Notes: generated by a model from the sequence alone, not told the origin. Numbered from the stretch's first letter, positions 3,535 through 38,613 are shown. The stretch: DNA of 64,000 bases from Dehalococcoidia bacterium (GCA_965116015.1 OZ220477.1:2020339-2084338), one strand, 5' to 3'. Numbers and translations are program-made.

Positions 3535-4491
3535 GTGCCCCAGCTCTATCAGAGTGCCTCGCGGAATATGGGATTCCTGACACTGAGTGGAGGGGAGATA
3601 CTAGTCCCGATTGATGGACAGCATCGTGCAAAAGCGCTTGGTTTCGCCATGACCGGCACTAATAGCGACGGGAAATCCATCCCAGGCATAAAGGGCAACA
3701 CCGCGCTTGCCGAAGACTACGCGCCTGTTATACTGATGCGATTCAATGGCCCAGGGGTGCGTCGAATATTCAACAAGATCAATCGATACGCCAGAGCCAC
3801 ATCAAAAGGACAGAACATCATCACGGACGACGATGACTCTCTCGCTGTCCTCACACGAGAATTGCTTGGCGAAGATGGCCTTATCCCTGCCAGACTAGTG
3901 CGGATTGACGCAAACACGCTCACCGCAAAAGCTCCTGAATTCACGACGCTCGCCACGTTTTACGAAGCCAATATAGCTATAGTACTTGGACTTGGACTAG
4001 AGGGTCCAGGCAAACCGCAAGGCATGAATGACGGGAAGAGAGAAGTTGCCACAGAAGCCGCACGACGTATATGGGAAACTCTTCTCCAGCGCGTTGACCT
4101 CTTCTCCGCGGCTTTGGCGGACACCACGGAGCGGGGAGACGGCGCGCGCATCAGAATTCGCGAAGAAACACTGCTCGGCAAACCCATTGGGCAACTAGCT
4201 CTGGTCCGCGCCTTTATGGAGATGCGCGAACGCTGTGCTGGGATTCACGAGACAACCCTTTGCGACCGCCTTAACCGCATCGACTGGAGCATCGACGCCG
4301 ATCTCTGGAGGGGCGTACTCGTGGCCCCGAATGGTCGCGTCCTCGCTGGCAAGACCACCGTAAACAGGGCAGCTATATTCATTGCCCACCTCGGCGGCGT
4401 CCAGCTAACAGCTGGAGAGCGCGAGACGCTCCTCGAAGCAATCCACGGCGAAGACTGGCGTAGCCACCAGCTTCCCAATCCCGTGGCGTAA
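3535..4491 (+). CDS. DGQHR-domain (DndB-like) protein, probably 5'-truncated or degenerate
   Basis: 'ILVPIDGQHRAKALGF' occurs only ~27 residues from the ORF start. In-frame stops lie at 3484 and 3526. The transposon end is 55 nt upstream. Confidence 0.6.
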   Translation: MPQLYQSASRNMGFLTLSGGEILVPIDGQHRAKALGFAMTGTNSDGKSIPGIKGNTALAEDYAPVILMRFNGPGVRRIFNKINRYARATSKGQNIITDDDDSLAVLTRELLGEDGLIPARLVRIDANTLTAKAPEFTTLATFYEANIAIVLGLGLEGPGKPQGMNDGKREVATEAARRIWETLLQRVDLFSAALADTTERGDGARIRIREETLLGKPIGQLALVRAFMEMRERCAGIHETTLCDRLNRIDWSIDADLWRGVLVAPNGRVLAGKTTVNRAAIFIAHLGGVQLTAGERETLLEAIHGEDWRSHQLPNPVA

Positions 4492-5119: not shown

Positions 5120-5797
5120 CTAGGGGTTGCTGGCTACAGCGTATTGGTTGTAGCCGAGGCCGCGAACGTGCGGCTCCCGGTGGAGCAGATTGCGCAGGCG
5201 CCCTAGCTCCGCTGCGTCCCAGCCCATCGCTTCCGCGACCGCCTCGTCCCACAGACGCCGCACCTCGCATTCCCCGTCGCGGAACTGCGGGACGATCGTC
5301 TCCCGCGTACGCTCCCAGCAGTCCGCAAGAACTTGGCGGATGCGGTCATCCTTGATGTCAGGAACCCTCAGATTGCCCGCCTCCGTCGTGCTGTAGATGG
5401 GGAAATTGATTTTCCTTCCAGGGTGTCGCATCAGCTGAAGGCGGCCTGCTGTTGAGTTGATGAATACGGCGAGCGCTTTCGCTTCGGTGGGCGATAACCC
5501 GCTTACCGGCATCCATCCGTTGCCGACATAGCACTCGTCGCTCGCGACTGCGGTCAGGCGTGCGGTTCCCGTGTCTTGCCCAGCCGTCATTAGCAGGTAT
5601 CCGGCCTTTAGCAGGATATTATCGACTTCGGGGTAGGAGCCGCCGCTGGCTCGCCGGATGGTCTCGTTGCGGTTCTTGGGGATCCAGTGCTGGTCGGGTT
5701 GGCTCTGTATCCTCGTTTGTCCATCAGCGCTTTTGGACTTCAAAATCGGGAAACTGCTGGAATCGTGGGCGGTTGCCCGTTTAAAAGAACCGCGCAA
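5120..5797 (-). CDS. Target-recognition-domain-like module, in frame with the upstream Type ISP ORF
   Basis: 225 aa with 'AKALAVFINSTAGRLQLM', the xLNS-type motif seen in methylase specificity domains. Same reading frame as 5816-10075, separated by TAG plus 6 codons. Confidence 0.55.
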   Translation of the reverse strand: MRGSFKRATAHDSSSFPILKSKSADGQTRIQSQPDQHWIPKNRNETIRRASGGSYPEVDNILLKAGYLLMTAGQDTGTARLTAVASDECYVGNGWMPVSGLSPTEAKALAVFINSTAGRLQLMRHPGRKINFPIYSTTEAGNLRVPDIKDDRIRQVLADCWERTRETIVPQFRDGECEVRRLWDEAVAEAMGWDAAELGRLRNLLHREPHVRGLGYNQYAVASNP

Positions 5798-5839
5798 AAG
5801 GCGGCCTGTCTCATCCTAATGAGACAGGCCGCCTTTTGC
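5794..5839 (-). other. Perfect 20-bp-stem hairpin with the Type ISP stop codon in its 6-nt loop
   Basis: Arm 5794-5813 pairs perfectly with 5820-5839. The TAG (5816-5818) lies in the loop. On the minus strand the hairpin is followed by CGCGGTTCTTTTAAA. Confidence 0.85.
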
Positions 5840-8800
5840 CATAGGCTGCAAACCTGCATCGTTGGCGAATCCAAAAGCGGCTTCAGCTAGCTCAGGAGAG
5901 CGCCAGACTGCTGGAGTCCAATCACCATCCTCGATGCGCTCCGCTGGCCACTCAGAGACCTCGCCCCAGCCATGCTCTAGGAGACCGCCTTCGCAGCGTG
6001 TAAGGCAATCGTGCAAGTCCGCTGCTTCATTATTGTCGGATGGCCACCTGTCGAGTTGAATGAATCGAGTGGGGGCCTGATGCTCGCCGCGCCTCTTGGC
6101 AACGATGATGCTCTCGTTAATCTTGACGTGCTGGCTGAGATTGATCTGTCCGGGCAAGTGGCAAGTGAGAACGTCGCTAATGTGGTAGCGCTGGGCTAGC
6201 GTACGCCGTGTAACCGATGCAGACGTTGCTGTCATGGCAATGGTTGGGTGGACCATCGCGAGAACGCTGTGCGATGAGTCCAAGCACTTATCCGCCAGAG
6301 CCACGAACAAGGGCGCTATCGAGTTTTTATCAGCGAAATCTCCCATATCCCTGTCGTTACGGACGAGAGTTTCCTCCATGGTGTCGGCTCGCGACCGCAA
6401 TGCCTGCTGCATTTCTCTAGGGAACTTTTCGCCCATCTTGGCGCGATTAGTGAACGGCGGATTCATAATGACAATGCGGGCGTCTTTGGCGGCGTCCACG
6501 GCGTCTTCCAGTTCGACATCGTCGCGGGGGTCCCACACCTGCTTCGACTTGATGGCCTCGTCCGGCAAGTCCAATTCGCCGACTCTGGGGAGAAGCTCCC
6601 TTTGGCCTAGCAGCTCCAGCGTGCCGGTGAACACCCTTGCGGAGTCATGCGGGGACGGCCCGTAGGGCATCAGGCGCAGCCCCATCCGCCGGTAGCGAAT
6701 CTCGTGGTTGCCCGCCGTCAGCTGCGACGCCGCCAATTGCAGCGACACAGGGTTGATGTCGAGTCCCTTGATAGTGTCCTCGACGGCGAGCTTCTGCAAC
6801 GCGGCTAGCTTCTCCTCGCTGGCGCCCTGCGCTCTGGCGCGGCGCTTCATCTCGGCGAGCATAGCCGCCAGCAGCGTTCCGCTGCCGCAAGCCAGGTCGA
6901 CAATCTTGTGCGCCTTCCAGACTTCAGGGTCGCTCCAGTCCACGTCGCCGCAGGCGTCGAGGGTAAGGCTTGCGGCGATGAACGCCGCCGTTGGCCGCGT
7001 GAAGAACGCCCCGTCGCTCGCCTGATTCCCCATCACGCGGTTGAAGAGCGGCCCTGCGTGGTCAGCGCCCATATCAGCGTAGGTTTCGGCGATGCGCTCC
7101 GCCTCCGCCGCGATGTGCCACAGCGCCCGCTCCAGCCCCGCCAGCTTTCCCGTGTCCTCGGCAGCCTGAATGGCCTTGATCGCAGGATCTAGCACTGCCT
7201 TGAAGTCGCGGCTCATAATCTCGTTCCATTCCCGAAGGAGCCGCCGGACGACGTTGACATCGTTCTTGACGCTCTCCAGGGGGCTTACGCCGGAGATCCA
7301 GCGTCCGCTGGCGATGCGCTGGTGGAGCATTGCGGCGTTCATCATCAGCAGCGCGGCGATAGTGCAGCCGTCGGCCTGCTTGTTGCGGCTCTCCGTCTTC
7401 AGGTTGTCGAGTTGGAAGTGGGCGTCCAGTGCGTTCGACAGGCGGTCTTCGCGCAGATGCCGCGCCGCCTCCCCGACGCCCGCTTCGAGGATGTTCAGAT
7501 CGCGCATCACCCGATTCGTGCGCAACCCCGACTTGGAGAGCAAGTTCACGATGATGGCGTCAGTGAGGTTTGGTGAGGGTGCGGGAACTGATGAGCAGTG
7601 TTGCTTCTCCGCTCCGGCGAGTAAATCGAGTAAGCGCTGAGCGTTGCTCTCTGCGACATCCTCGGTAGTACGCTTGACGCGAGGCGGCAAGCGTATGCCG
7701 GCGTCTTCGTTGATCATTTTCTTGGCTTTGTCGATAGTCTTCTCGATGTTCAACTGTCCCGGTGCGCCGTCCGGTCCGGGATTGTCGCGACCGACGCTGT
7801 CAATGCGCGTCTCGACTTCTCCGCCGTCGTTCACCTTCGCGGTGATGATGGCCGTCGGAATCAGCGGCGTGTCTTCGGAGCCGTAGTCGGTTTCTGGATC
7901 TTCGGTTTCCCGCGCATAATCGTCAAGAGGCGTGAGAGTGCCGGGATAAGTCTGCTGCCCCTTCGCGATGGCCTCGGCGGTTTCTTGCGCTTCCCCTGGC
8001 TTGCCAGCGTGCACCCAAGTCTGGATTTTCGTTTCCGGAGTCGCAGTAGCGACGACGGTGGCTTCCTCTTCCGGTTCGGGAGGCAGGTACACCTTCATCA
8101 AGTGCCTTATCTCGTCTTCAATGCGGCTGTCGTGAGCGCGCAGCGCCCGCAGGATCTGCCCTAGCTCCTGCCATCCGTCTTGCGGCCCGCTGGCGGCCAA
8201 CCACTGCTCGGCTTCCGCATTTGGGGGAAAGACGATAGGGCAGATGATGTACCCCATCTCCTTGCCTTGCGCGCTGCGCATAACGCGCCCCACGGCCTGT
8301 ATGACGTCGATGGGACTCTTGCGCGGCTCCAGGAACGCCACCGCGCTGAGGGACGGCGCGTCCGTGCCCTCCCCAAAGATGCCAACGTTGACGATGCCGT
8401 GCGGGTTCTCCCTGTCAGCGTTCGCCAGCCTACTCTTGGCGTTCTCCCGAGCGGCGACGTTGCTGGTCGCGTCCAAGTGCTCCAGCGTGTACTGCGCTGC
8501 GGCGGGCGCTCGCGGAGTTGCCTCTAGCCGTCCCCTCAGCCACTCCCTTACCTTGTCGGTCTGGAGGTGCCTCGCCATATTCTTCGATTTCTCGACGGTG
8601 TTCATAAAGGCGATGCAAGACTTGATGGACACGCTGTCGACCTCGTTGCTCTGCGTGGCTCCGCCCATTGCCAGCGTGAAAGCCAGCCCGCGGAGAAAGT
8701 GCGTGGTCGTGAGCGACTGCCGCCCCTCGTTCGTGGCGTCCGAAGCCAGCGCGTTTGCCGCTTCGTACGCTTCGAGGTCGTTTACTCCGAGGGCGATGAT

Positions 8801-10075
8801 GCGGTAGTCGGAGAGCCACCCGTTGCTGACCGCCTCCTTATAGCTTCTACGGTACAGCTCAACTCCGAAGACGGTTGCGTCGTCCATACTCCGCACGACC
8901 CAATCCTCTTGCTTGTGGCGCTGCTGCTCTTTGGCGTCGTACACGCGCGGCGTAGCGGTCTGATAGACGCGGTATGTGGCGGGGAATCTGCCGTTGTCGT
9001 GGCAGATGGTGAAGTCGCGCAGCTGCTTCTCCAACTTCGGCATGCGGCGCAGACCCGCCGTGCGGTGCGCTTCGTCGGCGATGAGGACAGCGGCGACGGC
9101 TCCGGACGCGACCAGCGCTTCGCCTATCTTGTGGCTGCTCTGATAGGTCCCGAAGATGACGTTGACTCGTTCGCTGCTCTGCCCTGCGCGTATCCAGTCG
9201 GCAATCTCCCCTGAGTCGGTGGTTACCTTGCCTTTCACCTCAGACGCGCTGACGTAGCTTGCGTCCAGCGTGGGGTCGGCGGCGCGGTCCAGCGAACTCT
9301 CCTTAGGGGCGACGGTTGGATCGGAGCACACGGCGAGCGCACAGATGGACTTGCGAGCGTTCTGCAAGTACTCGCGCCGTATCTGGGCGACAAGCGCTAT
9401 GGAAGGGCATAGCACGACAGCCAGCTCTCCCTGCTGGGTCAGCTCCTCGATGATGCGCAGGGAGATGCGGGTCTTGCCCGTGCCGCAAGGAAGGACGATC
9501 TTCCCGCGAGCCTGTCCTGCCGGCAGCCCGCCGCTATCCGACTGTACGTGCTCCTTGAGGGCGTTGACGCTCTCCTCCACGGCCTCGTTCTGCATGCACT
9601 GCAGAGTTTGGCGGGGCGGGTTGCCGTCGTCGTCGCGCGCGGCGTCCGGGTCGCAGTGAGGGCAGTACTCAGCCTGCTCGACGAGCGGCTGGGCGAGAAG
9701 GTCGGCGTGGATGTTGACGAGCTTGAGTTGCTGCGCGGCTACAGACAAGCCCTGCTTGGCTTCGCTGCTCAGCTGATTGGCGCCGTTGGTGACAAGCCAG
9801 CGCTCCGCCCAAATCGGCGCGCTGGCGGCTGCGGTGAACTTGTCCAGCTCGCCTTTGTGGATATCGTCGCCCTTGCCAGAGGCATCAAGCTTCCGCGCCT
9901 TGCACTGGATGGCTATGTACTGATCGCCGCGTTTGGCGACGGCATCGATGCCGACATCCGTTCTGGTGGATTCTGGGAAACGCCCTGTCCGTTCGGGCCA
10001 GTCGCCCCAGAGCCAGCACTCCTCGATGTCCCAGTCCTTGATGTGCGGCCCTGCCTCGACGACGAGGTTCTCCAA
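5816..10075 (-). CDS. Type ISP-like restriction-modification enzyme (Mrr-like nuclease + SF2 helicase + gamma-class N6-A methyltransferase)
   Basis: PD-(D/E)xK-like 'DVGIDAV...IAIQCK'. Helicase motifs 'CGTGKT', 'IADEAHR', 'QTATP', 'QAVGRVMR'. Methylase motifs 'DLACGSGTLL' and 'IMNPPFT'. TTG start. Confidence 0.8.
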   Translation of the reverse strand: MENLVVEAGPHIKDWDIEECWLWGDWPERTGRFPESTRTDVGIDAVAKRGDQYIAIQCKARKLDASGKGDDIHKGELDKFTAAASAPIWAERWLVTNGANQLSSEAKQGLSVAAQQLKLVNIHADLLAQPLVEQAEYCPHCDPDAARDDDGNPPRQTLQCMQNEAVEESVNALKEHVQSDSGGLPAGQARGKIVLPCGTGKTRISLRIIEELTQQGELAVVLCPSIALVAQIRREYLQNARKSICALAVCSDPTVAPKESSLDRAADPTLDASYVSASEVKGKVTTDSGEIADWIRAGQSSERVNVIFGTYQSSHKIGEALVASGAVAAVLIADEAHRTAGLRRMPKLEKQLRDFTICHDNGRFPATYRVYQTATPRVYDAKEQQRHKQEDWVVRSMDDATVFGVELYRRSYKEAVSNGWLSDYRIIALGVNDLEAYEAANALASDATNEGRQSLTTTHFLRGLAFTLAMGGATQSNEVDSVSIKSCIAFMNTVEKSKNMARHLQTDKVREWLRGRLEATPRAPAAAQYTLEHLDATSNVAARENAKSRLANADRENPHGIVNVGIFGEGTDAPSLSAVAFLEPRKSPIDVIQAVGRVMRSAQGKEMGYIICPIVFPPNAEAEQWLAASGPQDGWQELGQILRALRAHDSRIEDEIRHLMKVYLPPEPEEEATVVATATPETKIQTWVHAGKPGEAQETAEAIAKGQQTYPGTLTPLDDYARETEDPETDYGSEDTPLIPTAIITAKVNDGGEVETRIDSVGRDNPGPDGAPGQLNIEKTIDKAKKMINEDAGIRLPPRVKRTTEDVAESNAQRLLDLLAGAEKQHCSSVPAPSPNLTDAIIVNLLSKSGLRTNRVMRDLNILEAGVGEAARHLREDRLSNALDAHFQLDNLKTESRNKQADGCTIAALLMMNAAMLHQRIASGRWISGVSPLESVKNDVNVVRRLLREWNEIMSRDFKAVLDPAIKAIQAAEDTGKLAGLERALWHIAAEAERIAETYADMGADHAGPLFNRVMGNQASDGAFFTRPTAAFIAASLTLDACGDVDWSDPEVWKAHKIVDLACGSGTLLAAMLAEMKRRARAQGASEEKLAALQKLAVEDTIKGLDINPVSLQLAASQLTAGNHEIRYRRMGLRLMPYGPSPHDSARVFTGTLELLGQRELLPRVGELDLPDEAIKSKQVWDPRDDVELEDAVDAAKDARIVIMNPPFTNRAKMGEKFPREMQQALRSRADTMEETLVRNDRDMGDFADKNSIAPLFVALADKCLDSSHSVLAMVHPTIAMTATSASVTRRTLAQRYHISDVLTCHLPGQINLSQHVKINESIIVAKRRGEHQAPTRFIQLDRWPSDNNEAADLHDCLTRCEGGLLEHGWGEVSEWPAERIEDGDWTPAVWRSPELAEAAFGFANDAGLQPMAKGGLSH

Positions 10076-10475
10076 CCACCTGCCGTCGGTGCTATGAGGG
10101 TTCTTCTCGTCCAGAATGCTGAGCGCCCACTCGATAACGCTCTTCCGCTAGCGCACCTACTCCGCTACGCCCCCCCCCAGTCCCTCCTAAATCCCAAATT
10201 TGGAGCGCACGACAGGCGGCAGAATTGCCCGCTGCCACTATTGTGCCTTCCTTTCGGTATCAGAGGACTTGGGCGGAGTGGAGAGCAGCGCCGCTGCAAT
10301 GTCCCTGACTGGTCGGTTTATTGGCTCTGGGAGCGGATCAGTCGGGTGTTCGCGCTTCTTACTTGCAGGCTTACGCTTCTCCATGATGCACCTCTTTCTT
10401 GCTGCTCGGTATGCGACCTGGAGGGCTTTGCGCATTCCCGCAGTAGGTGCCCCTGTCGCCCCATCATCGTCGTCA

Positions 10476-10670
10476 TTACTTTCTCCTACGCTTCTCGCCT
10501 AGGAGTAGTCGGTCAACGTCCTCCTTTGGTATCCGCACTACTCGCACTGGCAATGCCGCACGAGTTAGTTCACCTCGCTTGAGCAGCCGTCGCACCGTAG
10601 GTTGCGACACCCTGAGAATCGCAGCCGCCTCTGCAACTGTCAACACCTTATTCGACTCTGGTTCTCTCAT
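10476..10670 (-). CDS. Excisionase/MerR-type HTH protein (copy 2)
   Basis: 64 aa, near-identical to 898-1101 apart from a one-codon indel and a divergent C-terminus. Confidence 0.7.
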   Translation of the reverse strand: MREPESNKVLTVAEAAAILRVSQPTVRRLLKRGELTRAALPVRVVRIPKEDVDRLLLGEKRRRK

Positions 10671-10806
10671 ATCCTCTACTATGCTCTGATATTTTCTATA
10701 GTATGCATAAATGCTCTAAAAGAGTCAATAGGCATCACATATACCCTTGACTATTCTGCTGAGTCATGGTAGAGTGGGGCGAAATGACCCAGCCCTAGAG
10801 GTGGAC

Positions 10807-11751
10807 ATGGCGAAATGCGGTCCAGGTCGGTATGAGCGAAAGGGAATCAGCCTGAAAGAAGCGGTGGAGCTTGCGGCGGACAATGCCGCAGCTGAGCAGT
10901 GGTTCGAGAGCGTCCGATGGCCTGACGGCGTACGATGCCCACGCTGCGATGGAAGCAACATCCTCGAACGCAAGAACCGCAAGCCGATGCCCTACAAATG
11001 CCGATCCTGCAACCGCAACTTCTCGGTCAAGGTGGGAACAGTGATGCAGGCGAGCAAGATCCGCTACGGCGACTGGTGGCTCGCCTGCTACCTGCACTCC
11101 ACGAACCTCAAGGGCGTGTCCAGCATGAAGCTGTCGCGCGACCTCGGACTCACCCAGAAGCACGCGTGGCACCTGCTCCACCGCATCCGCAAGGCTTGGG
11201 ACGATAGCAGCACCCCGCGCTTCGACGGAAAGGTCGAAGCCGATGAGACCTACATCGGGGGCAAGGAGCGGAACAAGCACGAGTCGAAGAAGCTGCGCGA
11301 AGGGCGGGGCGCAGTCGGCAAGGTCGCAGTCGTCGGCGTGAAAGACCGCGATACCGGCATGGTCAAGGCAAAGGTCGTTCCGTCCACAGACGCCCGCACG
11401 CTACAAGGATTCGTCGAGGAGGCCACTGAGCCTGAAGCCACCGTCTACACCGACGAGGCGCGTGCGTATCAAGGGATCAACCGCCAGCACGAGGCGGTCG
11501 CCCATAGCGCAAAGGAGTTCGTGTACGGGCATGCTCACACGAACGGGATCGAGAGCATGTGGTCGATGATGAAGCGTGGCTATATGGGCGTGTACCACCA
11601 CTGGAGCGCCAAGCACTGCCAGCGGTATGTTGACGAGTACGCCGGACGGCATAACGCCCGCCCGCTCGACACCATCAAGATACTGGCGCGAATCGTAGTC
11701 GGGATGAATGGCAAACGCCTGACTTACCCCCAGCTCATCGGCACGGTGTAG
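10807..11751 (+). CDS. IS1595-family DDE transposase (copy 2)
   Basis: 314 aa with only 4 substitutions relative to 1246-2190. Confidence 0.85.
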   Translation: MAKCGPGRYERKGISLKEAVELAADNAAAEQWFESVRWPDGVRCPRCDGSNILERKNRKPMPYKCRSCNRNFSVKVGTVMQASKIRYGDWWLACYLHSTNLKGVSSMKLSRDLGLTQKHAWHLLHRIRKAWDDSSTPRFDGKVEADETYIGGKERNKHESKKLREGRGAVGKVAVVGVKDRDTGMVKAKVVPSTDARTLQGFVEEATEPEATVYTDEARAYQGINRQHEAVAHSAKEFVYGHAHTNGIESMWSMMKRGYMGVYHHWSAKHCQRYVDEYAGRHNARPLDTIKILARIVVGMNGKRLTYPQLIGTV

Positions 11752-31938: not shown

Positions 31939-34900
31939 CTAGCCCTCTAGCCCGTCAGAACAGACAGTGCGGACCACCTGCGGCTCGCGCGCCTGTGGAC
32001 GATCGGAATCCTCGGGCGGAGCGAGACGGAAACGCGCGCGCAGCGCCTCCAGCCGTGTGCGGAGCTCTGAACCAGCCAATCCCTGCTCCCGAATCTTGCT
32101 CAACTCCTGCTCCGCCTGCTGCGGCAGATCCCCCGTAAAGATGCGCCGGAGCGCGTCGATGCGCCCCGCATCGACCGCCTCCCCCGCCTCTCGCAGCGCG
32201 GCATTGAGCCGCCCCGACACGTAGCGCCGCGCTCGCGAGTCATGGGATCTCCTCGCCCTCCCCAAGCGACGTTGAAACTCCCGCTTGAACGCCTCGAACG
32301 CAGCCGTCACCCGCTCGTTCGTATCTTCCGGCAGCGGCTCCGCCGGAGCGTCCGGCTCGCACCTCGCCGCCTCCACGAACTGCGCCGGAGTGATAGCCCG
32401 CGGCTGAAGATCAGACCCAACTGCGTAGCAACCGTTCACCCCTCGCGATCCTCCCGCGCCCAGCAGAACGATAGTCTCCGAAGGCTTGGGAGCCTCGAAC
32501 GGCGACGGCGCCATCGTCGCCGGCGACATCAGCGGCGCCTGCTCCCCGTCGACCGTCGCCCCGTTCCGCGCGTAGTTGTCGTCGCCGAACTCCGACCGCT
32601 CCGGACGCGCCCTGAGCGCCGACCGTATCCCGTCGGGAAGCTCCGTGATCGTTCGCCAAAGCTCAGGATCGCCCTCCTTGATTCGCTGCAACTCCGCCGT
32701 CGCATGCTGATGCGCTGTCACCTCGCCCAGCCCATCCTCCGCATCCGGCATCTCCTTCCTGTCGTAGATGCAATAGAGCGCATCGTCGTTAAGATGCTCC
32801 CCCTCAGACAGCAGCTGGTTATCCAGCCCTATGGCGTCGTGAAACGACTGAATGCGGCGCCCTACCCGCTCCGTCAAGGATAGACCCGCATCCACCTCCA
32901 CATCCGGCCACATATTGTGCAACCGGATGACAGAATGCCGCGTTCCGATGCGGTCCACCCGCCCGAAACGCTGGATGAGACGCACCGGATTCCAGTGCAG
33001 ATCGTAATTCAGCGCCCGGGCGCAGTCCTGCAAGTTCTGACCCTCCGAAACAATGTCCGTGGCCAGCAGAATTCTGATCTCCGGCCCCGGACGCTTCTCA
33101 TTTCGCGACAGGTTCGACCCCGGAGAGAACCGCTTGACCACGCTCTCCGCCTGATGTCGCACGCTCCCCGTCAGCATCGCGATTCCCGGATCGCCCTCCC
33201 CTGGATTCAGCTCCCGATACAGATACGAAATCGTCGTCTCCGCCTCCGAGAAGATCAGAATCTTCTCGCCCTTCACCTCCTCCCGCTCCAGGAAATCCCG
33301 CAGCGCCCGCAGCTTGTCGTCGTCCTCCGCCGTGATGCCGCTCACCCGCGACAGAACGCCGCTCAGAACCCCGTGATCCGCATCGAGGTCGTCCATCCAC
33401 CTGACAACATCGAAGTCGGCGACATCATGAACCAGCTTGGCGCTCGCATTCCCCTGCCCTCGCCGCCGCTCCTCTTCCTGCGACAGCATCTCCAGGAGAT
33501 CCCCCGCCTCGAAAGCCTGACCCGCCAGCATCCGCGCCGCCGTATCGCCGATAGGAACGTACCCGCCCCCCAGCGCCGACCGGAAGTTCCGATTGCTCTG
33601 ACTCAACGCCCTCAGCGTGGAGCGGAACGCCTCGATGCTCGACTCCAACCGCTTGAGTAACAGCACGTTCATCAGCGCGGCGATGCGGTGCGCCGCCCTG
33701 AACAAATCCCGGTACTCGTCCTTGCCCCTCGCTTCCGCCCTCACGTAATCAGTAGCCCGGTACCGCGCCCCCTTGTGCTGGCGCAGTCCTCCCACTAGCT
33801 CCTCCAGAGAGCCCGCCTTCGCGTAGACCCTATCGAGACGATACGCAACATTGTCCAGAACCGGCTCCGGAAAAACGACCGGCTCCCCCGCCACCATTGC
33901 CGTATCACCGTACAGCCGCTCGATATCCTTGCGCCTCCGCCGTATGAACACAGGAGCCAGCGCCTGCGCGATATCCGCCTTCGGAACCGATGGCGCGGCC
34001 GGCGGCAGCGGAGGCGCCGTCGCCGCCTTGCTCGCTTCCCACGCCCTGAACTCCCGCTCGTACTCCTCGAACTCAGCCCGATGTTGCTGCCACCTCTGAG
34101 CGTTGTTGAAATACGCGCTCAGGCTCGCCGGCTCGATATTCAGCCCGTGCTCCATGTCGTCGAGAAAGAGCGTCAGCTGCCGGTAAATGTCCATCGGCCC
34201 CAGATTCTGCGGCGTCGCGCTGAGCAAGATTACCTTGTGGTCGCCAGACTCTAGGTAGCTGCGCAACCCGATGGACCGCCGATTCACGTTGCGGAAGTTA
34301 TGAGCCTCGTCCACCAGCACCGCCCCCCTGTTGGGATACGCCTGCCCCAGAACGATTCCCTGCCCCGCCCTCTCAGACTCCACATACCGCCCCAACTCCT
34401 CGTCGAACTCAGCGTCCGGAGGCGGCGCGACGACGCTGTGCGAAACAACCGCCGCTCCCAGCGCGAACCGCTCGTTGAACGACTCCCACATCGACTTCAG
34501 CCCCGCCGGACACAGAATCAGCGGCGGCCCGTCGTTCGGATAGCTCGCCCGCAGCTGCCGCAGCAGCTCCGCCCCCACATACGTCTTCCCCAGCCCAACC
34601 ACATCGCCGATATAAGCTCCCCCGTGCTCCTCAATCATCCGCAGCCCCTGACGCACCGCATCCATCTGAAAATTCGCCAGCTCCTCCGTGCGCTGAGGCC
34701 GAAGCTCGACATCCGGAACATCTGCGTAGTACAGCTCGTACAGCCCCTTCAGATAAACGTGATACGGAGGCGTAGCCGCCAGCGGCCACGACCGCGCCAG
34801 CGCCGCCTCGAGCGCCTCGCTGATGTCCTGCGAATCCTTCCACAGCGTCTCGAACCACTCGCGCAGAGCCTCCATCTCCGCATCCCCAGTCACGCGAACA

Positions 34901-35439
34901 TTCAGCTCCGTATTCCCCGAGAACCCCGCAAGCGTCATATTCGACGACCCCACCACCGCCGCTCCCGGCTCCGCATGATTCTCGTACCAGCACAGGTACG
35001 CCTTCGCGTGCAGCGGACTCCGAAGATACGCCCTAACCTCCGCCTTCCCCGACGCAATCATATCGCGCAGCGAGCGCACCGCCCGCTCCGAATCAGCATC
35101 CTGTGGAAGAGACGCCACCCCGGCCGCGACGTGCTCCACCGACTCCCGAGCCGCGCTCTCCCGCTCCCGACGCTGCACGATGCTGTCCGCCTCCAGTTGC
35201 GCCCGCAGCGCCTCGGCCTGCTGCGCCCCGAGCGCCGCCTCCTCCAGCGTCGGACGATCCGACCGCCCCACAAGAATGCGAACCTTCTCCAGCCGCTCGA
35301 AACTACCCGCCACCTTTTGGAACCCCGACATAAACAGATAGCCCACCGCGATATCCGCCCGCGCCGAACTCCCAAGCATCTCCTGCAGCCGCGTCAGCAG
35401 ATTAGGCTCAGTCGTCGCATGCAGAATGTTCATAGCCAT
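31939..35439 (-). CDS. PLD-family nuclease domain fused to an SNF2-family helicase, with a long uncharacterised C-terminal region
   Basis: Single HKD-type motif 'LHAKAYL...VGSSNMT' at the N-terminus. SNF2 motifs 'GLGKT', 'VLVDEAHNFRN', 'LLSATPQN', 'SEGQNLQD...WNPVRLIQRFGRVDRIG'. Confidence 0.8.
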   Translation of the reverse strand: MAMNILHATTEPNLLTRLQEMLGSSARADIAVGYLFMSGFQKVAGSFERLEKVRILVGRSDRPTLEEAALGAQQAEALRAQLEADSIVQRRERESAARESVEHVAAGVASLPQDADSERAVRSLRDMIASGKAEVRAYLRSPLHAKAYLCWYENHAEPGAAVVGSSNMTLAGFSGNTELNVRVTGDAEMEALREWFETLWKDSQDISEALEAALARSWPLAATPPYHVYLKGLYELYYADVPDVELRPQRTEELANFQMDAVRQGLRMIEEHGGAYIGDVVGLGKTYVGAELLRQLRASYPNDGPPLILCPAGLKSMWESFNERFALGAAVVSHSVVAPPPDAEFDEELGRYVESERAGQGIVLGQAYPNRGAVLVDEAHNFRNVNRRSIGLRSYLESGDHKVILLSATPQNLGPMDIYRQLTLFLDDMEHGLNIEPASLSAYFNNAQRWQQHRAEFEEYEREFRAWEASKAATAPPLPPAAPSVPKADIAQALAPVFIRRRRKDIERLYGDTAMVAGEPVVFPEPVLDNVAYRLDRVYAKAGSLEELVGGLRQHKGARYRATDYVRAEARGKDEYRDLFRAAHRIAALMNVLLLKRLESSIEAFRSTLRALSQSNRNFRSALGGGYVPIGDTAARMLAGQAFEAGDLLEMLSQEEERRRGQGNASAKLVHDVADFDVVRWMDDLDADHGVLSGVLSRVSGITAEDDDKLRALRDFLEREEVKGEKILIFSEAETTISYLYRELNPGEGDPGIAMLTGSVRHQAESVVKRFSPGSNLSRNEKRPGPEIRILLATDIVSEGQNLQDCARALNYDLHWNPVRLIQRFGRVDRIGTRHSVIRLHNMWPDVEVDAGLSLTERVGRRIQSFHDAIGLDNQLLSEGEHLNDDALYCIYDRKEMPDAEDGLGEVTAHQHATAELQRIKEGDPELWRTITELPDGIRSALRARPERSEFGDDNYARNGATVDGEQAPLMSPATMAPSPFEAPKPSETIVLLGAGGSRGVNGCYAVGSDLQPRAITPAQFVEAARCEPDAPAEPLPEDTNERVTAAFEAFKREFQRRLGRARRSHDSRARRYVSGRLNAALREAGEAVDAGRIDALRRIFTGDLPQQAEQELSKIREQGLAGSELRTRLEALRARFRLAPPEDSDRPQAREPQVVRTVCSDGLEG

Positions 35440-35451
35440 TCTCCAGTGCCA

Positions 35452-36276
35452 TCACACACTCCGCGCCCGGCGCAGACGATCCCCCACCAGCTTCGCGACC
35501 CCCTCGTACACCGCATCGCGCTCCCCCGACGTCAACCCCAGCGCGTCGAACACCGCGTCGTCCACCTCACGCCGCGCAGCCGACGGCGCAAGCACATCCC
35601 ACTCCGTGCTCTCGAACACTCCCGCGTCTACCTCCGGCAATAGCTCAGGGTTGACTATGGAAAGATTCCTTGTCTCGTAAGTTTGAATCTCTAGCACTCC
35701 TTCTCCGAAATTCGATCTGCTTTCGATATTCACCATCAGTTGGAACAGTGTTGAGTTGATGGCTTGGCATAGCTGTATTGAAGAAACACTGTCGGTTGCA
35801 GACATCACCTGGAAATTGTCAGTGAACAGAGCCCCCGATACTGCCAAGAAAGCCCGCGCGACCGTATTCACGAATTTGTTCATTCCCAGATGAACATTGT
35901 CCCGTTTTCCCAAATCGTACCATCGATGTCGAGACATGATTCCCTTCGTGAGATTAAATCCTTTCCGTTCGCCCCATTCGATGTATTTCAGCGCACCGGA
36001 GCCCCTCAGATTGCCTTTTGCCATATGGCACATGAACAGACGCTTCGGCAACGCCGCCGGATTCACGACAATGTTGCGCGATTCCCGAGGCGTGCTCATA
36101 ACAGGACGGCAGTACTCCGGCTCGATGCCGAACTCAGCAATGCGCTCCGATGTCAAACAGAAGAAAGCATTAGCCCCGGTCAAGACACCGAGCCGCACAG
36201 TCGCCACATCGCCTAGCCTCGCGAGCCTGTCACCGTACTTCGCCCGGATATGATGATAGATATCCGGCGCGCGCAA
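35452..36276 (-). CDS. C-terminal specificity (TaqI_C/TRD-like) part of the methyltransferase, in frame with 36421-38613
   Basis: 'LGDVATVRLGVLTGANAFF' and 'LCQAINSTLFQLM'. The frame is open and continuous up to the TAA at 36421-36423. TTG at 36276 is preceded by GGGGAGGA. Confidence 0.65.
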   Translation of the reverse strand: MRAPDIYHHIRAKYGDRLARLGDVATVRLGVLTGANAFFCLTSERIAEFGIEPEYCRPVMSTPRESRNIVVNPAALPKRLFMCHMAKGNLRGSGALKYIEWGERKGFNLTKGIMSRHRWYDLGKRDNVHLGMNKFVNTVARAFLAVSGALFTDNFQVMSATDSVSSIQLCQAINSTLFQLMVNIESRSNFGEGVLEIQTYETRNLSIVNPELLPEVDAGVFESTEWDVLAPSAARREVDDAVFDALGLTSGERDAVYEGVAKLVGDRLRRARSV

Positions 36277-36393
36277 GTACTTTCCTCCCCACTTATCGCC
36301 GACATACTTGCCGTCGCTCGTTCCCGCGGCAATCAGCTCATCGCGGCTCTTGCGTATCTCGCGCCGTTGAGTTGGGTCAGAAACCGCAATCGC

Positions 36394-36445
36394 GAATTGG
36401 GCGCGTAGCGACGAGTCTCTTTACTCGTCGCTACGCGCCCAATTC
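36394..36445 (-). other. Perfect 23-bp-stem hairpin spanning the methyltransferase stop codon
   Basis: Arm 36394-36416 pairs perfectly with 36423-36445. The loop is 36417-36422. The TAA (36421-36423) sits at the loop/stem junction. Confidence 0.85.
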
Positions 36446-38613
36446 CTGCTGACAACACTGATTATCGTATTGATATCCGCGGTAGCGAACTGCCGCTCCA
36501 CCGCGCTCTCGTAGATTGCTTGCACATGCGCGTTCGTCAGCAAATACTCCTGCAATTTCGCTCCGTAACTCACATCCAGCCAGCTGTTGGAGCACACGAA
36601 TACGTGCATACCGCCCTTGCGCAGCAGCTGCAATCCCCGCGCATAGAAATAGCAGTACAGGTCGGAGCGCGCGACAACAGCATCCCCGTACTGCTTGACT
36701 AGCGCTGCCTTATCAAGCTTGGCCAGACCGGCCTTCTCCGAGCCGATAAGCTCCTGCCGAACATACGGCGGATTAGCGATTGCCACGTCGAACCCCCCGC
36801 GTCCAGCGAACACCTCGGCGAACTCCACCCTCCAGTCCACCACCCCGCACTTACGCTCCAACGCTCCCATAGCCGCGCGCAACTCGCCCTTCAGCGACTC
36901 AATCTCACCGCGCAGCCACTGCTTGCGTCCGCCATCGGATTCGCGCAAGTACTCCCCCTTCAGCTCCCCCAGCCGCCGGACGCGCTCCACATCCTGCCCC
37001 AGCGTGCCCTGAACCTCCACTCCCGCGCTCGGATCCGGCCCGCCCAAGCTGTCCCCCTGCACAATCTTGAGATCAAGGTTGGGCAACGGCTCCGGCGCAT
37101 CCCCGTCATGCTCAATCGCCAGCGACAACCACAACCGCAGCATAGCAATGTTGACCGCAAACTCGTCGATATCCACGCCGTAGAGATTGCGCTGGATAAT
37201 TTCCAGCTTCAGTTCGTACAGGCTCTTGGCGTCCACGCCGGCGTTGTAGAGCGCCGACTGCAACTCGATAAGCTCCTGCATCATCCCCAGCAGATACGCG
37301 CCGGAGCCGCATGCCGGATCCGCCACAGTTACTTGCGCCAGCGCGTCCGCAATCCTCCGCGCCTGCGCCATCCCCAGCCCATCAGTGTCGTGAGCGTTCA
37401 CGAACCGCTCAACCGCGTCGTCGTCGAGCTCAGGAACCTGTCCCTTCAGGTAGCCCTTGAGCGCCTCCCCGCACATAAACGACACCACCTGCCGCGGCGT
37501 GTAGTACGCCCCCGACGAATGTCGCCCCGTAACCAGCTCCTCGAACACCTTCCCCAGCATCTCCGGGTCAACCGCAACCTCAATATCGAATGGCGTAGAC
37601 TCCATAACCGTGAAGTTGAAGCGATCGAAGAGCTCGCTCAGAACGCGCTCGATAATCGCGTCCGGCACAACGACGCCGTCGACCTTGTCCGGATCAGTCC
37701 TCTCGAACAGTCCGCCATTGAGAAAAGGAACATGCCCAATGAGGGGATCCAATCCCCTAGTCAAGTTCCTCGAATCCGGATTGTTAAGTCCATTGAAGAA
37801 CAGCGGCTGAAGCCTCGACTTGTAGAAATTGCTATCCCCCGACGCTTGGTGTGCATTCCACAGAGCGTTGAGATAGTCGTAGTCCCTCCGCCTCTCCTTG
37901 CCCTCGCCCTCCTCAAGGTGGAGCCAGCCCTTGCGCTGCAAGAAATACACGAACATCAAACGGTTGAAGAGAGTGAGAACGAACATCCGCCGGTCGTTGT
38001 CGTCGTTTGGGAACCCTGAAATACTAGCCTCCGCCGCAGCGAATATCCTCTTGTACGCCTCGAAGAATTCCCGCGTAACCGGCTCCACATCGAAAGCCTG
38101 CCGCAAAGCAATGCGGATGTTCCCGCTATCACTGTAACGCCAGTAGATTTTGGACACCTGCTGAACAGCAGTGCGTCGCGCCAGATCGCGTTCCACAGTC
38201 ATCCGCCTCAGCGTGGGCCTCGCGCCCTCGAAGCTCGGCAACACAAGCTGCAAACGCTCCCCCCGCTCATCCACGACCGCCAGCAGCAAGTCGTCCCCTA
38301 AATCCTTGGCGAGCGCCCGCGCGGCGGCGACTACCGCATCCTTGCGAACGCGCCCCGATTTCGACGCCGGCAAGCGGACAAGCGCAACCTGAACGCCGTC
38401 CAGCTCCGCTATGCGCTCTGCCGCGTCGGGGAGCCGCATCCCGGCGGCGGCTCCTGCCAGGCTCACCTCCCCGTTAGCGGCGTGGAAGTCCAGCGCCTCC
38501 ACGAACAACCTGCGCACAGCAGTGCCAAGACTCTCCCGCGACGCCGAAGAGGCGGCGGCAAAGATCTCCTCGATATGCCTCTCCACATCTCGCGCGTCAT
38601 CCAGTCTTTGCAT
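36421..38613 (-). CDS. N6-adenine DNA methyltransferase, MmeI/PglX (Eco57I)-like, truncated by an in-frame stop
   Basis: 'FVYFLQRKGW', 'VPFLNGGLFE', motif I 'ADPACGSGAYLL', motif IV 'IANPPYV'. Confidence 0.8.
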   Translation of the reverse strand: MQRLDDARDVERHIEEIFAAASSASRESLGTAVRRLFVEALDFHAANGEVSLAGAAAGMRLPDAAERIAELDGVQVALVRLPASKSGRVRKDAVVAAARALAKDLGDDLLLAVVDERGERLQLVLPSFEGARPTLRRMTVERDLARRTAVQQVSKIYWRYSDSGNIRIALRQAFDVEPVTREFFEAYKRIFAAAEASISGFPNDDNDRRMFVLTLFNRLMFVYFLQRKGWLHLEEGEGKERRRDYDYLNALWNAHQASGDSNFYKSRLQPLFFNGLNNPDSRNLTRGLDPLIGHVPFLNGGLFERTDPDKVDGVVVPDAIIERVLSELFDRFNFTVMESTPFDIEVAVDPEMLGKVFEELVTGRHSSGAYYTPRQVVSFMCGEALKGYLKGQVPELDDDAVERFVNAHDTDGLGMAQARRIADALAQVTVADPACGSGAYLLGMMQELIELQSALYNAGVDAKSLYELKLEIIQRNLYGVDIDEFAVNIAMLRLWLSLAIEHDGDAPEPLPNLDLKIVQGDSLGGPDPSAGVEVQGTLGQDVERVRRLGELKGEYLRESDGGRKQWLRGEIESLKGELRAAMGALERKCGVVDWRVEFAEVFAGRGGFDVAIANPPYVRQELIGSEKAGLAKLDKAALVKQYGDAVVARSDLYCYFYARGLQLLRKGGMHVFVCSNSWLDVSYGAKLQEYLLTNAHVQAIYESAVERQFATADINTIISVVSRNWARSDE

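Follow-up and report, generated by a model that had tools for sequence, protein, structure and literature searches.

The window, by which we mean the whole 64-kb stretch of DNA analysed here, comes from a bacterium that is probably a sponge symbiont, and is rich in R-M genes. We focused on a 3.1-kb gene on its minus strand, gene 2, whose reading frame is broken by a stop codon at a perfect short-loop hairpin (hairpin 2). The 64 kb contain a single further perfect short-loop hairpin of the kind, hairpin 1, which lies in a second R-M gene, gene 1. The relevant features are listed below.

36421..38613, minus strand: ORF of 730 codons with the N-terminal region and a gamma-class N6-adenine MTase core (DPACGSG, NPPY; Pfam Eco57I, MmeI_Mtase, N6_Mtase), ending at the loop stop
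36423..36445, minus strand: upstream arm of hairpin 2 (in gene orientation), encoding (R)NWARSDE; variable linker 3' of the catalytic domain; an inverted copy of the downstream arm
36417..36422, minus strand: 6-nt loop of hairpin 2, AAAGAG on the coding strand, giving TAA together with the last arm base
36394..36416, minus strand: downstream arm of hairpin 2, encoding (D)SSLRAQF, the native conserved (F)VSLRAxF motif of the family
35452..36420, minus strand: in-frame continuation of 322 codons plus stop, covering the linker and then the C-terminal/TRD part; undamaged, with homology to full-length relatives
31939..35439, minus strand: downstream partner gene, a fusion of PLD (HKD) nuclease and SNF2-type helicase (PADLOC C3a139 'HKD+Snf2', DrmD-like)
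5120..10075, minus strand: Type ISP-like single-chain R-M gene (gene 1) of 1652 codons with Mrr nuclease, ResIII/helicase, MTase and TRD; the hairpin-1 stop is its sole break
5794..5839, minus strand: hairpin 1, with perfect 21-bp arms (5794-5814/5819-5839) and a 4-nt loop, TAGG on the coding strand; TAG at 5816-5818

The translation of gene 2 carries the catalytic motifs DPACGSGAYL (motif I) and IANPPYV (motif IV), scores 120 bits against Pfam Eco57I (cut-off 25.3), 46.5 against MmeI_Mtase and 32.9 against N6_Mtase, and matches REase_MTase_IIG in PADLOC (E = 1.7e-76). By these motifs and domains, gene 2 is a predicted Eco57I/MmeI-type gamma-class N6-adenine DNA methyltransferase. The continuation beyond the stop has PADLOC matches to the C-terminal regions of MTase_II (Type II/IIG methyltransferases); its own Pfam score is sub-threshold, and it aligns over its full length to homologs that bear PF22837 on the same chain. 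The nuclease-helicase fusion at 31939..35439 is presumed to be the restriction component of the gene-2 operon.

Positions 38613-35452 form a single frame of 1054 codons with one stop, the hairpin-2 TAA at 36421-36423, its T supplied by the final base of the upstream arm and its AA by the first two bases of the loop, so that the minus strand reads ...VSRNWARSDE TAA RDSSLRAQF... The arms (36394-36416 and 36423-36445) are each 23 nt long, 100% complementary and separated by a 6-nt loop; zero chance matches to them are expected in shuffles, and folded as ssDNA the hairpin has an energy of -32.3 kcal/mol (z = -10.7 against shuffles). Flipping the loop to CTCTTT removes the stop and gives ..E SLY SSLRAQF. 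The flipped peptide (..ESLYSSLRAQF) has an aromatic residue where the family has a conserved F, and the predicted ON peptide (..SLYSSLRAQF) deviates from the consensus F-V. There are no other lesions in the whole 3.1 kb of gene 2, nor any homopolymer of at least 7 bases within it. An intrinsic terminator at hairpin 2 was considered and rejected, as the hairpin has no T-tail and a terminator scan made no call.

Hairpin 1 likewise interrupts a single frame, with a TAG in its loop and the frame unchanged downstream of it. With the loop flipped to CCTA the gene reads GLSHPNETGRLL and is open. As ssDNA this hairpin folds at -28.6 kcal/mol, about 10 sd better than shuffles; it is terminator-like in look, with A/T tracts within the stem, yet lies inside conserved coding sequence. 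Aligned to homologs, GLSH*DETGRLLRGSF (the asterisk denoting the stop) faces GLS-PAATGQLLRGSF, with both arms over conserved residues and no change of length. Hairpins 1 and 2 have no sequence kinship, none of their arms has a second copy within the 64-kb window, and a search of metagenome_contigs and genome_contigs with the lower-stem pattern of hairpin 2 found 0 matches. A preliminary description of this DNA had anticipated much of this anatomy, and our analysis agrees with it on the perfect 23-bp hairpin, on a single gene with an in-frame TAA as its sole break, on the placement between methylase core and TRD (here, between the Eco57I domain and the C-terminal M_Eco57I_C/TRD part), on the same type of lesion in another R-M gene, and on the view that the two hairpins are not copies of a shared mobile palindrome.

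To place the stop in its family context we compared gene 2 with its homologs, of which 5201 were detected. The best full-length homologs are single ORFs of ~1040-1145 aa that cover 100% of the read-through product, at identities of at most 64-65%. Their alignment is gap-free at the stop, SRNWARSDE*RDSSLRAQF matching GKTSAPDNFDTRFVSLRADF column for column; the downstream arm corresponds to a nearly invariant FVSLRxxF motif and the upstream arm to a variable linker. The gap-free alignment identifies the downstream arm as native sequence. We found no pre-existing quasi-palindrome at the hairpin-2 site in the homologs, where 10-13 of 23 positions match, equal to shuffles; since the homologs are no more self-complementary than shuffles, the palindrome arose de novo in this lineage. 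Gap-free alignments at both hairpins rule out an insertion of extra sequence. The earlier proposal that one arm plus the loop might be additional sequence is not upheld by the full-length homologs, which show no gap and point to an overwrite of the same length. One arm is ancestral and the other its copy, with no net insertion, which is the configuration expected of a template switch. Two possibilities named at that stage as refutations, that homologs are naturally two ORFs here or that the stop is an artefact, also fail: the homologs are single ORFs and the stop recurs in independent contigs (see below). No ON allele of hairpin 2 was found in the protein database. Several truncated-looking database entries (P0117, P0078, P0095 and others) proved to be contig-edge fragments, not hairpin truncations.

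Evidence from sequencing runs was taken from Logan contigs (de Bruijn, k = 31). Hairpin 2 and its TAA are unchanged in independently built contigs from run X1 (2025, depth 85) and run X2 (2023, depth 221), ruling out an artefact of a single assembly; X1 differs from the window at 1 base in 901 of the hairpin-2 gene. A third run, X3, holds a relative at ~88% identity that aligns without gaps and again has a perfect 23-bp stem. All stem changes between X3 and the window are mirrored, as four pairs (36412/36427, 36413/36426, 36414/36425 and 36416/36423). The X3 loop differs and places a TGA one codon later (..NWARSDTK*VVSLRAQF); reverse-complementing this loop alone gives ..NWARSDTTHFVSLRAQF (THFVSLRAQF), compared with a family consensus of TRFVSLRAxF. 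Whereas the flanks have diverged by 8-10% between the window and X3, the lower 18 bp of the two arms are unchanged (0 differences; P 0.02-0.04). Over the 66 codons past the stop, dN/dS is ~0.29 (9 synonymous to 8 nonsynonymous changes, binomial P = 0.011), so the downstream part has been under purifying selection, though both lineages now show a stop. In all three runs (samples of 2023-2025) hairpin 2 is crossed by a single contig, in the stop orientation only. Separately, the ~88% identity of the X3 relative ends at 36193, with more divergent homologous sequence beyond (FGIKTGANEF..), and this break suggests that the TRD has been swapped between strains.

Run X2, which is the window's own sample, is the only run with hairpin 1. 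There the left contig ends in the loop CCTA and the right contig begins CTCAT-TAGG-ATGAG, the opposite loop orientation; both orientations of hairpin 1 probably coexist in X2. The same site carries a palindrome in another gene-1 homolog (P0122; L084:1923-1955), a perfect 15-bp hairpin with loop TGC exactly at the hairpin-1 position (AGLSPAATGQL), resembling a precursor. This hairpin has a stop in neither orientation, from which it follows that such hairpins can arise without a switch function. Codons for GLS are by their nature complementary to those for TGxL (GGCCTGTC/GACAGGCC), and this complementarity may seed palindromes at the hairpin-1 site.

We then surveyed 80 homologous reference-genome (GTDB) loci, 524 kb in total and mostly from long-read MAGs of Dehalococcoidia, Caldilineaceae and Poribacteria. 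These loci contain only seven perfect hairpins whose stem reaches 14 bp; just one of them has a stem of 20 bp or longer, and it lies within the homologous gene of a Dehalococcoidia MAG (L011). This hairpin has 23-bp arms and the loop TCC, lies in a variable linker ~35 codons downstream of the window's hairpin-2 site, and leaves the ORF intact; a flip of TCC to GGA would yield GCG-TAG. In three sponge-metagenome samples (X10, X11 and X12) an L011-type hairpin carries the loop GGA, the exact reverse complement, and reads ..DLAA*DTPP.., with three to four mirrored stem pairs relative to L011 (3451/3493, 3455/3489, 3456/3488). Both alleles, TCC with an intact ORF and GGA with a truncated one, exist in nature, and we take them to be two interconvertible states. 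The loop is TCC (ON) wherever that type occurs (L011, X4, X5 and X9), and the X10-type allele is OFF in 3 of 3, so flipping may be rare on ecological time scales. The three hairpin families (hairpin 2, hairpin 1 and L011) have no common sequence. Eighty more distant JGI metagenome loci contained no hairpins and no tracts.

As a separate observation, the L011 hairpin sits inside a 69-nt (23-codon) in-frame segment (L011:3435-3503) flanked by a 5-nt direct repeat, TTCGG. Exactly this segment is missing from the strain in run X6, and most homologs are without it too; it is either an insertion with target duplication or a segment lost elsewhere by microhomology deletion.

The third variant comes from sample S12, where the arms are 21 bp long and enclose a 4-nt loop; as TGAT this loop gives TGA-TAG, and as ATCA it is open. 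All four flank-loop junctions are present among four S12 runs: left-TGAT occurs with ATCA-right in X13 and X14, left-ATCA with TGAT-right in X17, and in X16 a contig traverses the hairpin in the open orientation. Since one orientation could not produce these k-mers, both orientations appear to coexist in S12, as read from k = 31 contig ends, which cannot span the palindrome and could in principle be fold-back chimeras. Mirrored arm changes were seen between the window and X3, mirrored arm changes together with a spacer that is the exact reverse complement between L011 and X10-X12, and reverse-complement spacers in the TGAT/ATCA pair of S12. We take such changes, judged from the sequences compared, to be the mark that template switching leaves.

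All five hairpin variants have a stop with the loop one way round and sense with it the other way. The null expectation comes from random in-frame hairpins matched in size and composition and having at least one open orientation; ~10% of these carry a stop in one orientation but not in the other. Given the real stems, the probability of stop-on-flip is 0.29 for hairpin 2, 0.04 for X3, 0.06 for hairpin 1, 0.5 for L011 and 0.36 for the S12 variant. Because two of the five variants were ascertained through their stop, and the families number only three that are independent, the statistical support is moderate, not overwhelming.

In a homolog, the linker in which hairpin 2 lies carries a hypermutable sequence of another kind. 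In a second Dehalococcoidia MAG (OZ244064.1; L023:3359-3387), a C29 homopolymer with a change of frame occupies this linker, immediately before TRFVSLRDEF; L028 has a C11 tract, accompanied by a frameshift, further along the gene (~3712-3722) and away from the hairpin-2 linker. These two are the only poly-C tracts among the 80 GTDB loci. Homopolymer tracts are a classical phase-variation device of R-M methyltransferases (PMC8355987, PMC4209511), and those in L023 and L028 probably represent classical SSR phase variation or, in part, errors of homopolymer length in the assembly. Taken together, the hairpins and these tracts mark the gene family as a contingency locus in this clade.

We propose, with a probability of roughly 0.6, that hairpin 2 is a recombinase-free ON/OFF (contingency) switch in an R-M methyltransferase/specificity gene, one that we have seen only in its OFF state. 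In this model a replication template switch would have copied the native FVSLRAQF stretch, in inverted form, over the adjacent variable linker, creating the perfect 23-bp inverted repeat while leaving the length of the gene unchanged. Further template switching between the arms would keep them identical and would occasionally invert the 6-nt spacer, as indicated by the relatives and S12 and by extension expected at hairpin 2. Template switching is known to homogenise arms and reversibly invert short spacers in coding DNA (PMC8604942, with arms >9 bp and spacers of 2-5 bp; PMC5941160), and no invertase or recombinase gene lies within ~10 kb of gene 2. With CTCTTT on the coding strand, the gene would be open and would encode a full MTase-TRD protein of 1053 residues. 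With AAAGAG, the state in the window, the TAA would, from the positions of the domains, halt translation past the catalytic core and ahead of the target-recognition part. Truncated at this point, the system could presumably neither recognise nor modify sites, and since loss of the TRD should abolish target-dependent restriction along with modification, OFF would be a safe state. In the second R-M gene, hairpin 1 would be an independent switch built on the same plan. The expected consequence is a reversible, heritable silencing of R-M in the symbiont population, a role that would equal that of the homopolymer tracts at the same linker in a related genome.

The main rival is that the same observations reflect simple loss of function. 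A one-off template switch and an accidental spacer inversion may have killed the gene, the same hot-spot process may have hit both R-M genes, and OFF would then be a neutral or favoured loss on the way to pseudogene decay. Such a plain null allele would account for the OFF state of hairpin 2 in every sample holding it, for L011-clade alleles that look fixed per strain (7 runs), for the formation of the L084 hairpin at such a site without a stop function, for homologs that are merely frameshifted (L013, L051), and for the window's off-consensus ON peptide. It is harder to reconcile with exactly one lesion per gene in 3.1 kb and 5 kb, or with a hairpin and stop that predate ~12% divergence and are yet followed by sequence with a dN/dS of 0.29. 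In X3, moreover, the loop and the top of the stem were rebuilt, again with a stop in one orientation only (4% by chance), and both orientations appear to coexist in S12 and probably also at hairpin 1 in X2. We consider simple loss unlikely, while giving it real weight.

We judge it very improbable that a recombinase encoded elsewhere flips the segment between the 23-bp repeats. The anatomy would suit an invertase-mediated intragenic inverton, with an invertible segment between inverted repeats inside a gene and a premature stop in one orientation, as in the premature-stop class (PMC10028968); repeats with both orientations were also seen in relatives, and would be expected at hairpin 2. From the known geometry of recombinases, however, a segment of 3-6 bp should be too short for synapsis of duplex arms, the three hairpin families have no common recognisable sequence, no recombinase gene is near gene 2, and the mirrored arm changes point to template switching.

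The preliminary description had also suggested that the TRD part could be translated independently, from the TTG at 36276 behind a GGAGG-like SD, which would make a two-piece enzyme with an MTase core ending at the TAA. An ORF with a TTG and a purine-rich stretch is indeed present, and some R-M families have separate S subunits. Both the TTG and the 'SD', however, lie within the invariant motif GDKWGGKYLRAP, in which GGGGAGGA encodes an invariant W-G-G, and they therefore do not speak for a separate start. The 48 codons that separate the stop from this TTG code in frame, are conserved and show purifying selection, and the homologs are single chains. We accordingly set the independent start aside and hold a two-piece enzyme to be highly unlikely.

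Translational recoding, in which the loop stop is read through or bypassed to give a constant low level of full-length protein, would fit a downstream frame that is preserved and under selection, and the pairing of a stop with a stable hairpin resembles the T4 gene 60 take-off site. The identity and position of the stop nevertheless differ between the window (TAA) and X3 (TGA, one codon later), and on inspection no matched pair of take-off and landing codons is conserved between the two. Recoding would also leave the DNA-level loop inversion between relatives and within a sample unexplained, and we give it very little credence. Least credible of all is a sequencing or assembly artefact or an inserted mobile palindromic element (REP/MITE-like), for although palindromes trouble assemblers and the L011 hairpin sits in a 69-nt in-frame indel with 5-nt repeat flanks, the same sequence occurs in independent k-mer contigs across several runs, years and studies, hairpins 1 and 2 leave the length as it is in homologs, no arm recurs elsewhere in the window, and searches of the genome and metagenome collections with the hairpin-2 stem pattern gave 0 matches.

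The systems closest to the proposed hairpin-2 switch are premature-stop intragenic invertons and homopolymer phase variation of R-M genes, and its mechanism matches template-switch spacer inversion. Intragenic invertons, including a premature-stop class and with a 57-bp inversion as an example, were described by Chanin et al. ('Intragenic DNA inversions expand bacterial coding capacity', PMC10028968). They resemble hairpin 2 in having inverted repeats within an ORF, an inversion that adds or removes a premature stop, and two heritable states of the gene. Those inversions are described as longer and mediated by an invertase, whereas here only the 3-6 nt between the arms of a perfect 21-23-bp hairpin would invert, the hairpins have no recognition sequence in common, no invertase lies nearby, and the arm changes are mirrored and of the template-switch type. 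Homopolymer/SSR phase variation of R-M MTases (Type III mod and Type IIG, in Campylobacter, Helicobacter and Neisseria; PMC8355987, PMC4209511) similarly produces a contingency locus with reversible ON/OFF control by a local hypermutable sequence and no dedicated enzyme, and the homolog L023 has its C29 tract at the very linker used by hairpin 2. It differs in working by slipped-strand frameshifting, while in our proposal the frame is constant and inversion of the loop toggles a stop.

In mechanism, template-switch homogenisation and spacer inversion (the Ripley model; yeast coding IRs, PMC8604942; proteobacterial IRs, PMC5941160) share with the present hairpins a perfect IR in coding DNA with a 2-6-nt spacer, exact reverse-complement spacers between close relatives, mirrored arm changes and reversibility. 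In those cases the process was described for arms of 9-16 bp and as generating multinucleotide substitutions; an ON/OFF device, a stop in one orientation or a concentration in defence genes is not described there. Plastid flip-flop micro-inversions (PMC9653739, PMC6824564) also involve recurrent, homoplastic loop inversion of a stable stem-loop without a recombinase, but are mostly non-coding and organellar, with no ascribed switch function. The hsdS/TRD shufflons of Type I and BREX/PglX systems (PMC7641763) likewise phase-vary the specificity part of R-M by DNA inversion; unlike hairpin 2, they swap TRD cassettes over hundreds of bp by means of a tyrosine or serine recombinase, and they change specificity, not ON/OFF state. 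Phase-variable R-M loci are already known; a loop-flip stop switch in R-M genes was not described in the literature that we searched, and template-switch spacer inversion as an ON/OFF switch is new as far as that search extends.

R-M phase variation shapes phage defence, gene flow and epigenetic regulation. The switches known for it act by repeat-tract slippage or recombinase-driven inversion, and a template-switch hairpin would be a third route. If true, such a switch would need no enzyme, no repeat tract and no change of frame, and any tolerant linker could evolve one. Current tools would also overlook it, since SSR finders do not detect it, inverton finders look for longer invertible segments and k-mer assemblies fragment at the palindrome. 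More tentatively, and at somewhat less than even odds, perfect coding hairpins with a 3-6-nt loop and a stop in one orientation may form a general, self-maintaining and recombinase-free contingency class that is both made and run by template switching, by which sponge-symbiont Chloroflexota toggle R-M/defence genes and which MAG annotations currently take for pseudogenes or split genes. The hairpin-2 type of switch would itself change how 'split' or 'pseudogenised' defence genes of long-read MAGs are interpreted, and it would provide a model, open to direct testing, of how fast palindromes undergo template switching in vivo.

The surroundings of gene 1 yielded several further observations. Two IS1595-family transposase copies, at 919-1433 and 10491-10994 (ORFs 1180-2190 and 10747-11751), are direct repeats that are 95-96% identical and bracket an island of ~9.5 kb containing a DndB-like gene (3535-4491) and the Type ISP-like gene with hairpin 1. 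No X1 contig matches 5555-5926, though X1 has the hairpin-2 gene at near identity; the island therefore seems variable between samples. In the gene-1 homologs L081-L084, the nuclease-helicase and MTase-TRD parts are called as two genes, with splits of 795/852, 1023/709 and 936/776 aa, a pattern suggestive of frameshifts in poorly covered contigs or of additional breaks in one long gene. At the edge of the window, beside an IS1595 copy, the minus strand encodes a third DNA methyltransferase, of the N6_N4_Mtase family (8-901). Finally, a C9 tract (G9 on the gene strand) at 10170-10178, which precedes the TTG start codon of the Type ISP-like gene by ~95 nt, may be a second contingency tract acting at the promoter/UTR level, and in the homolog L082 a C9 tract also occurs, within the upstream part of the gene.
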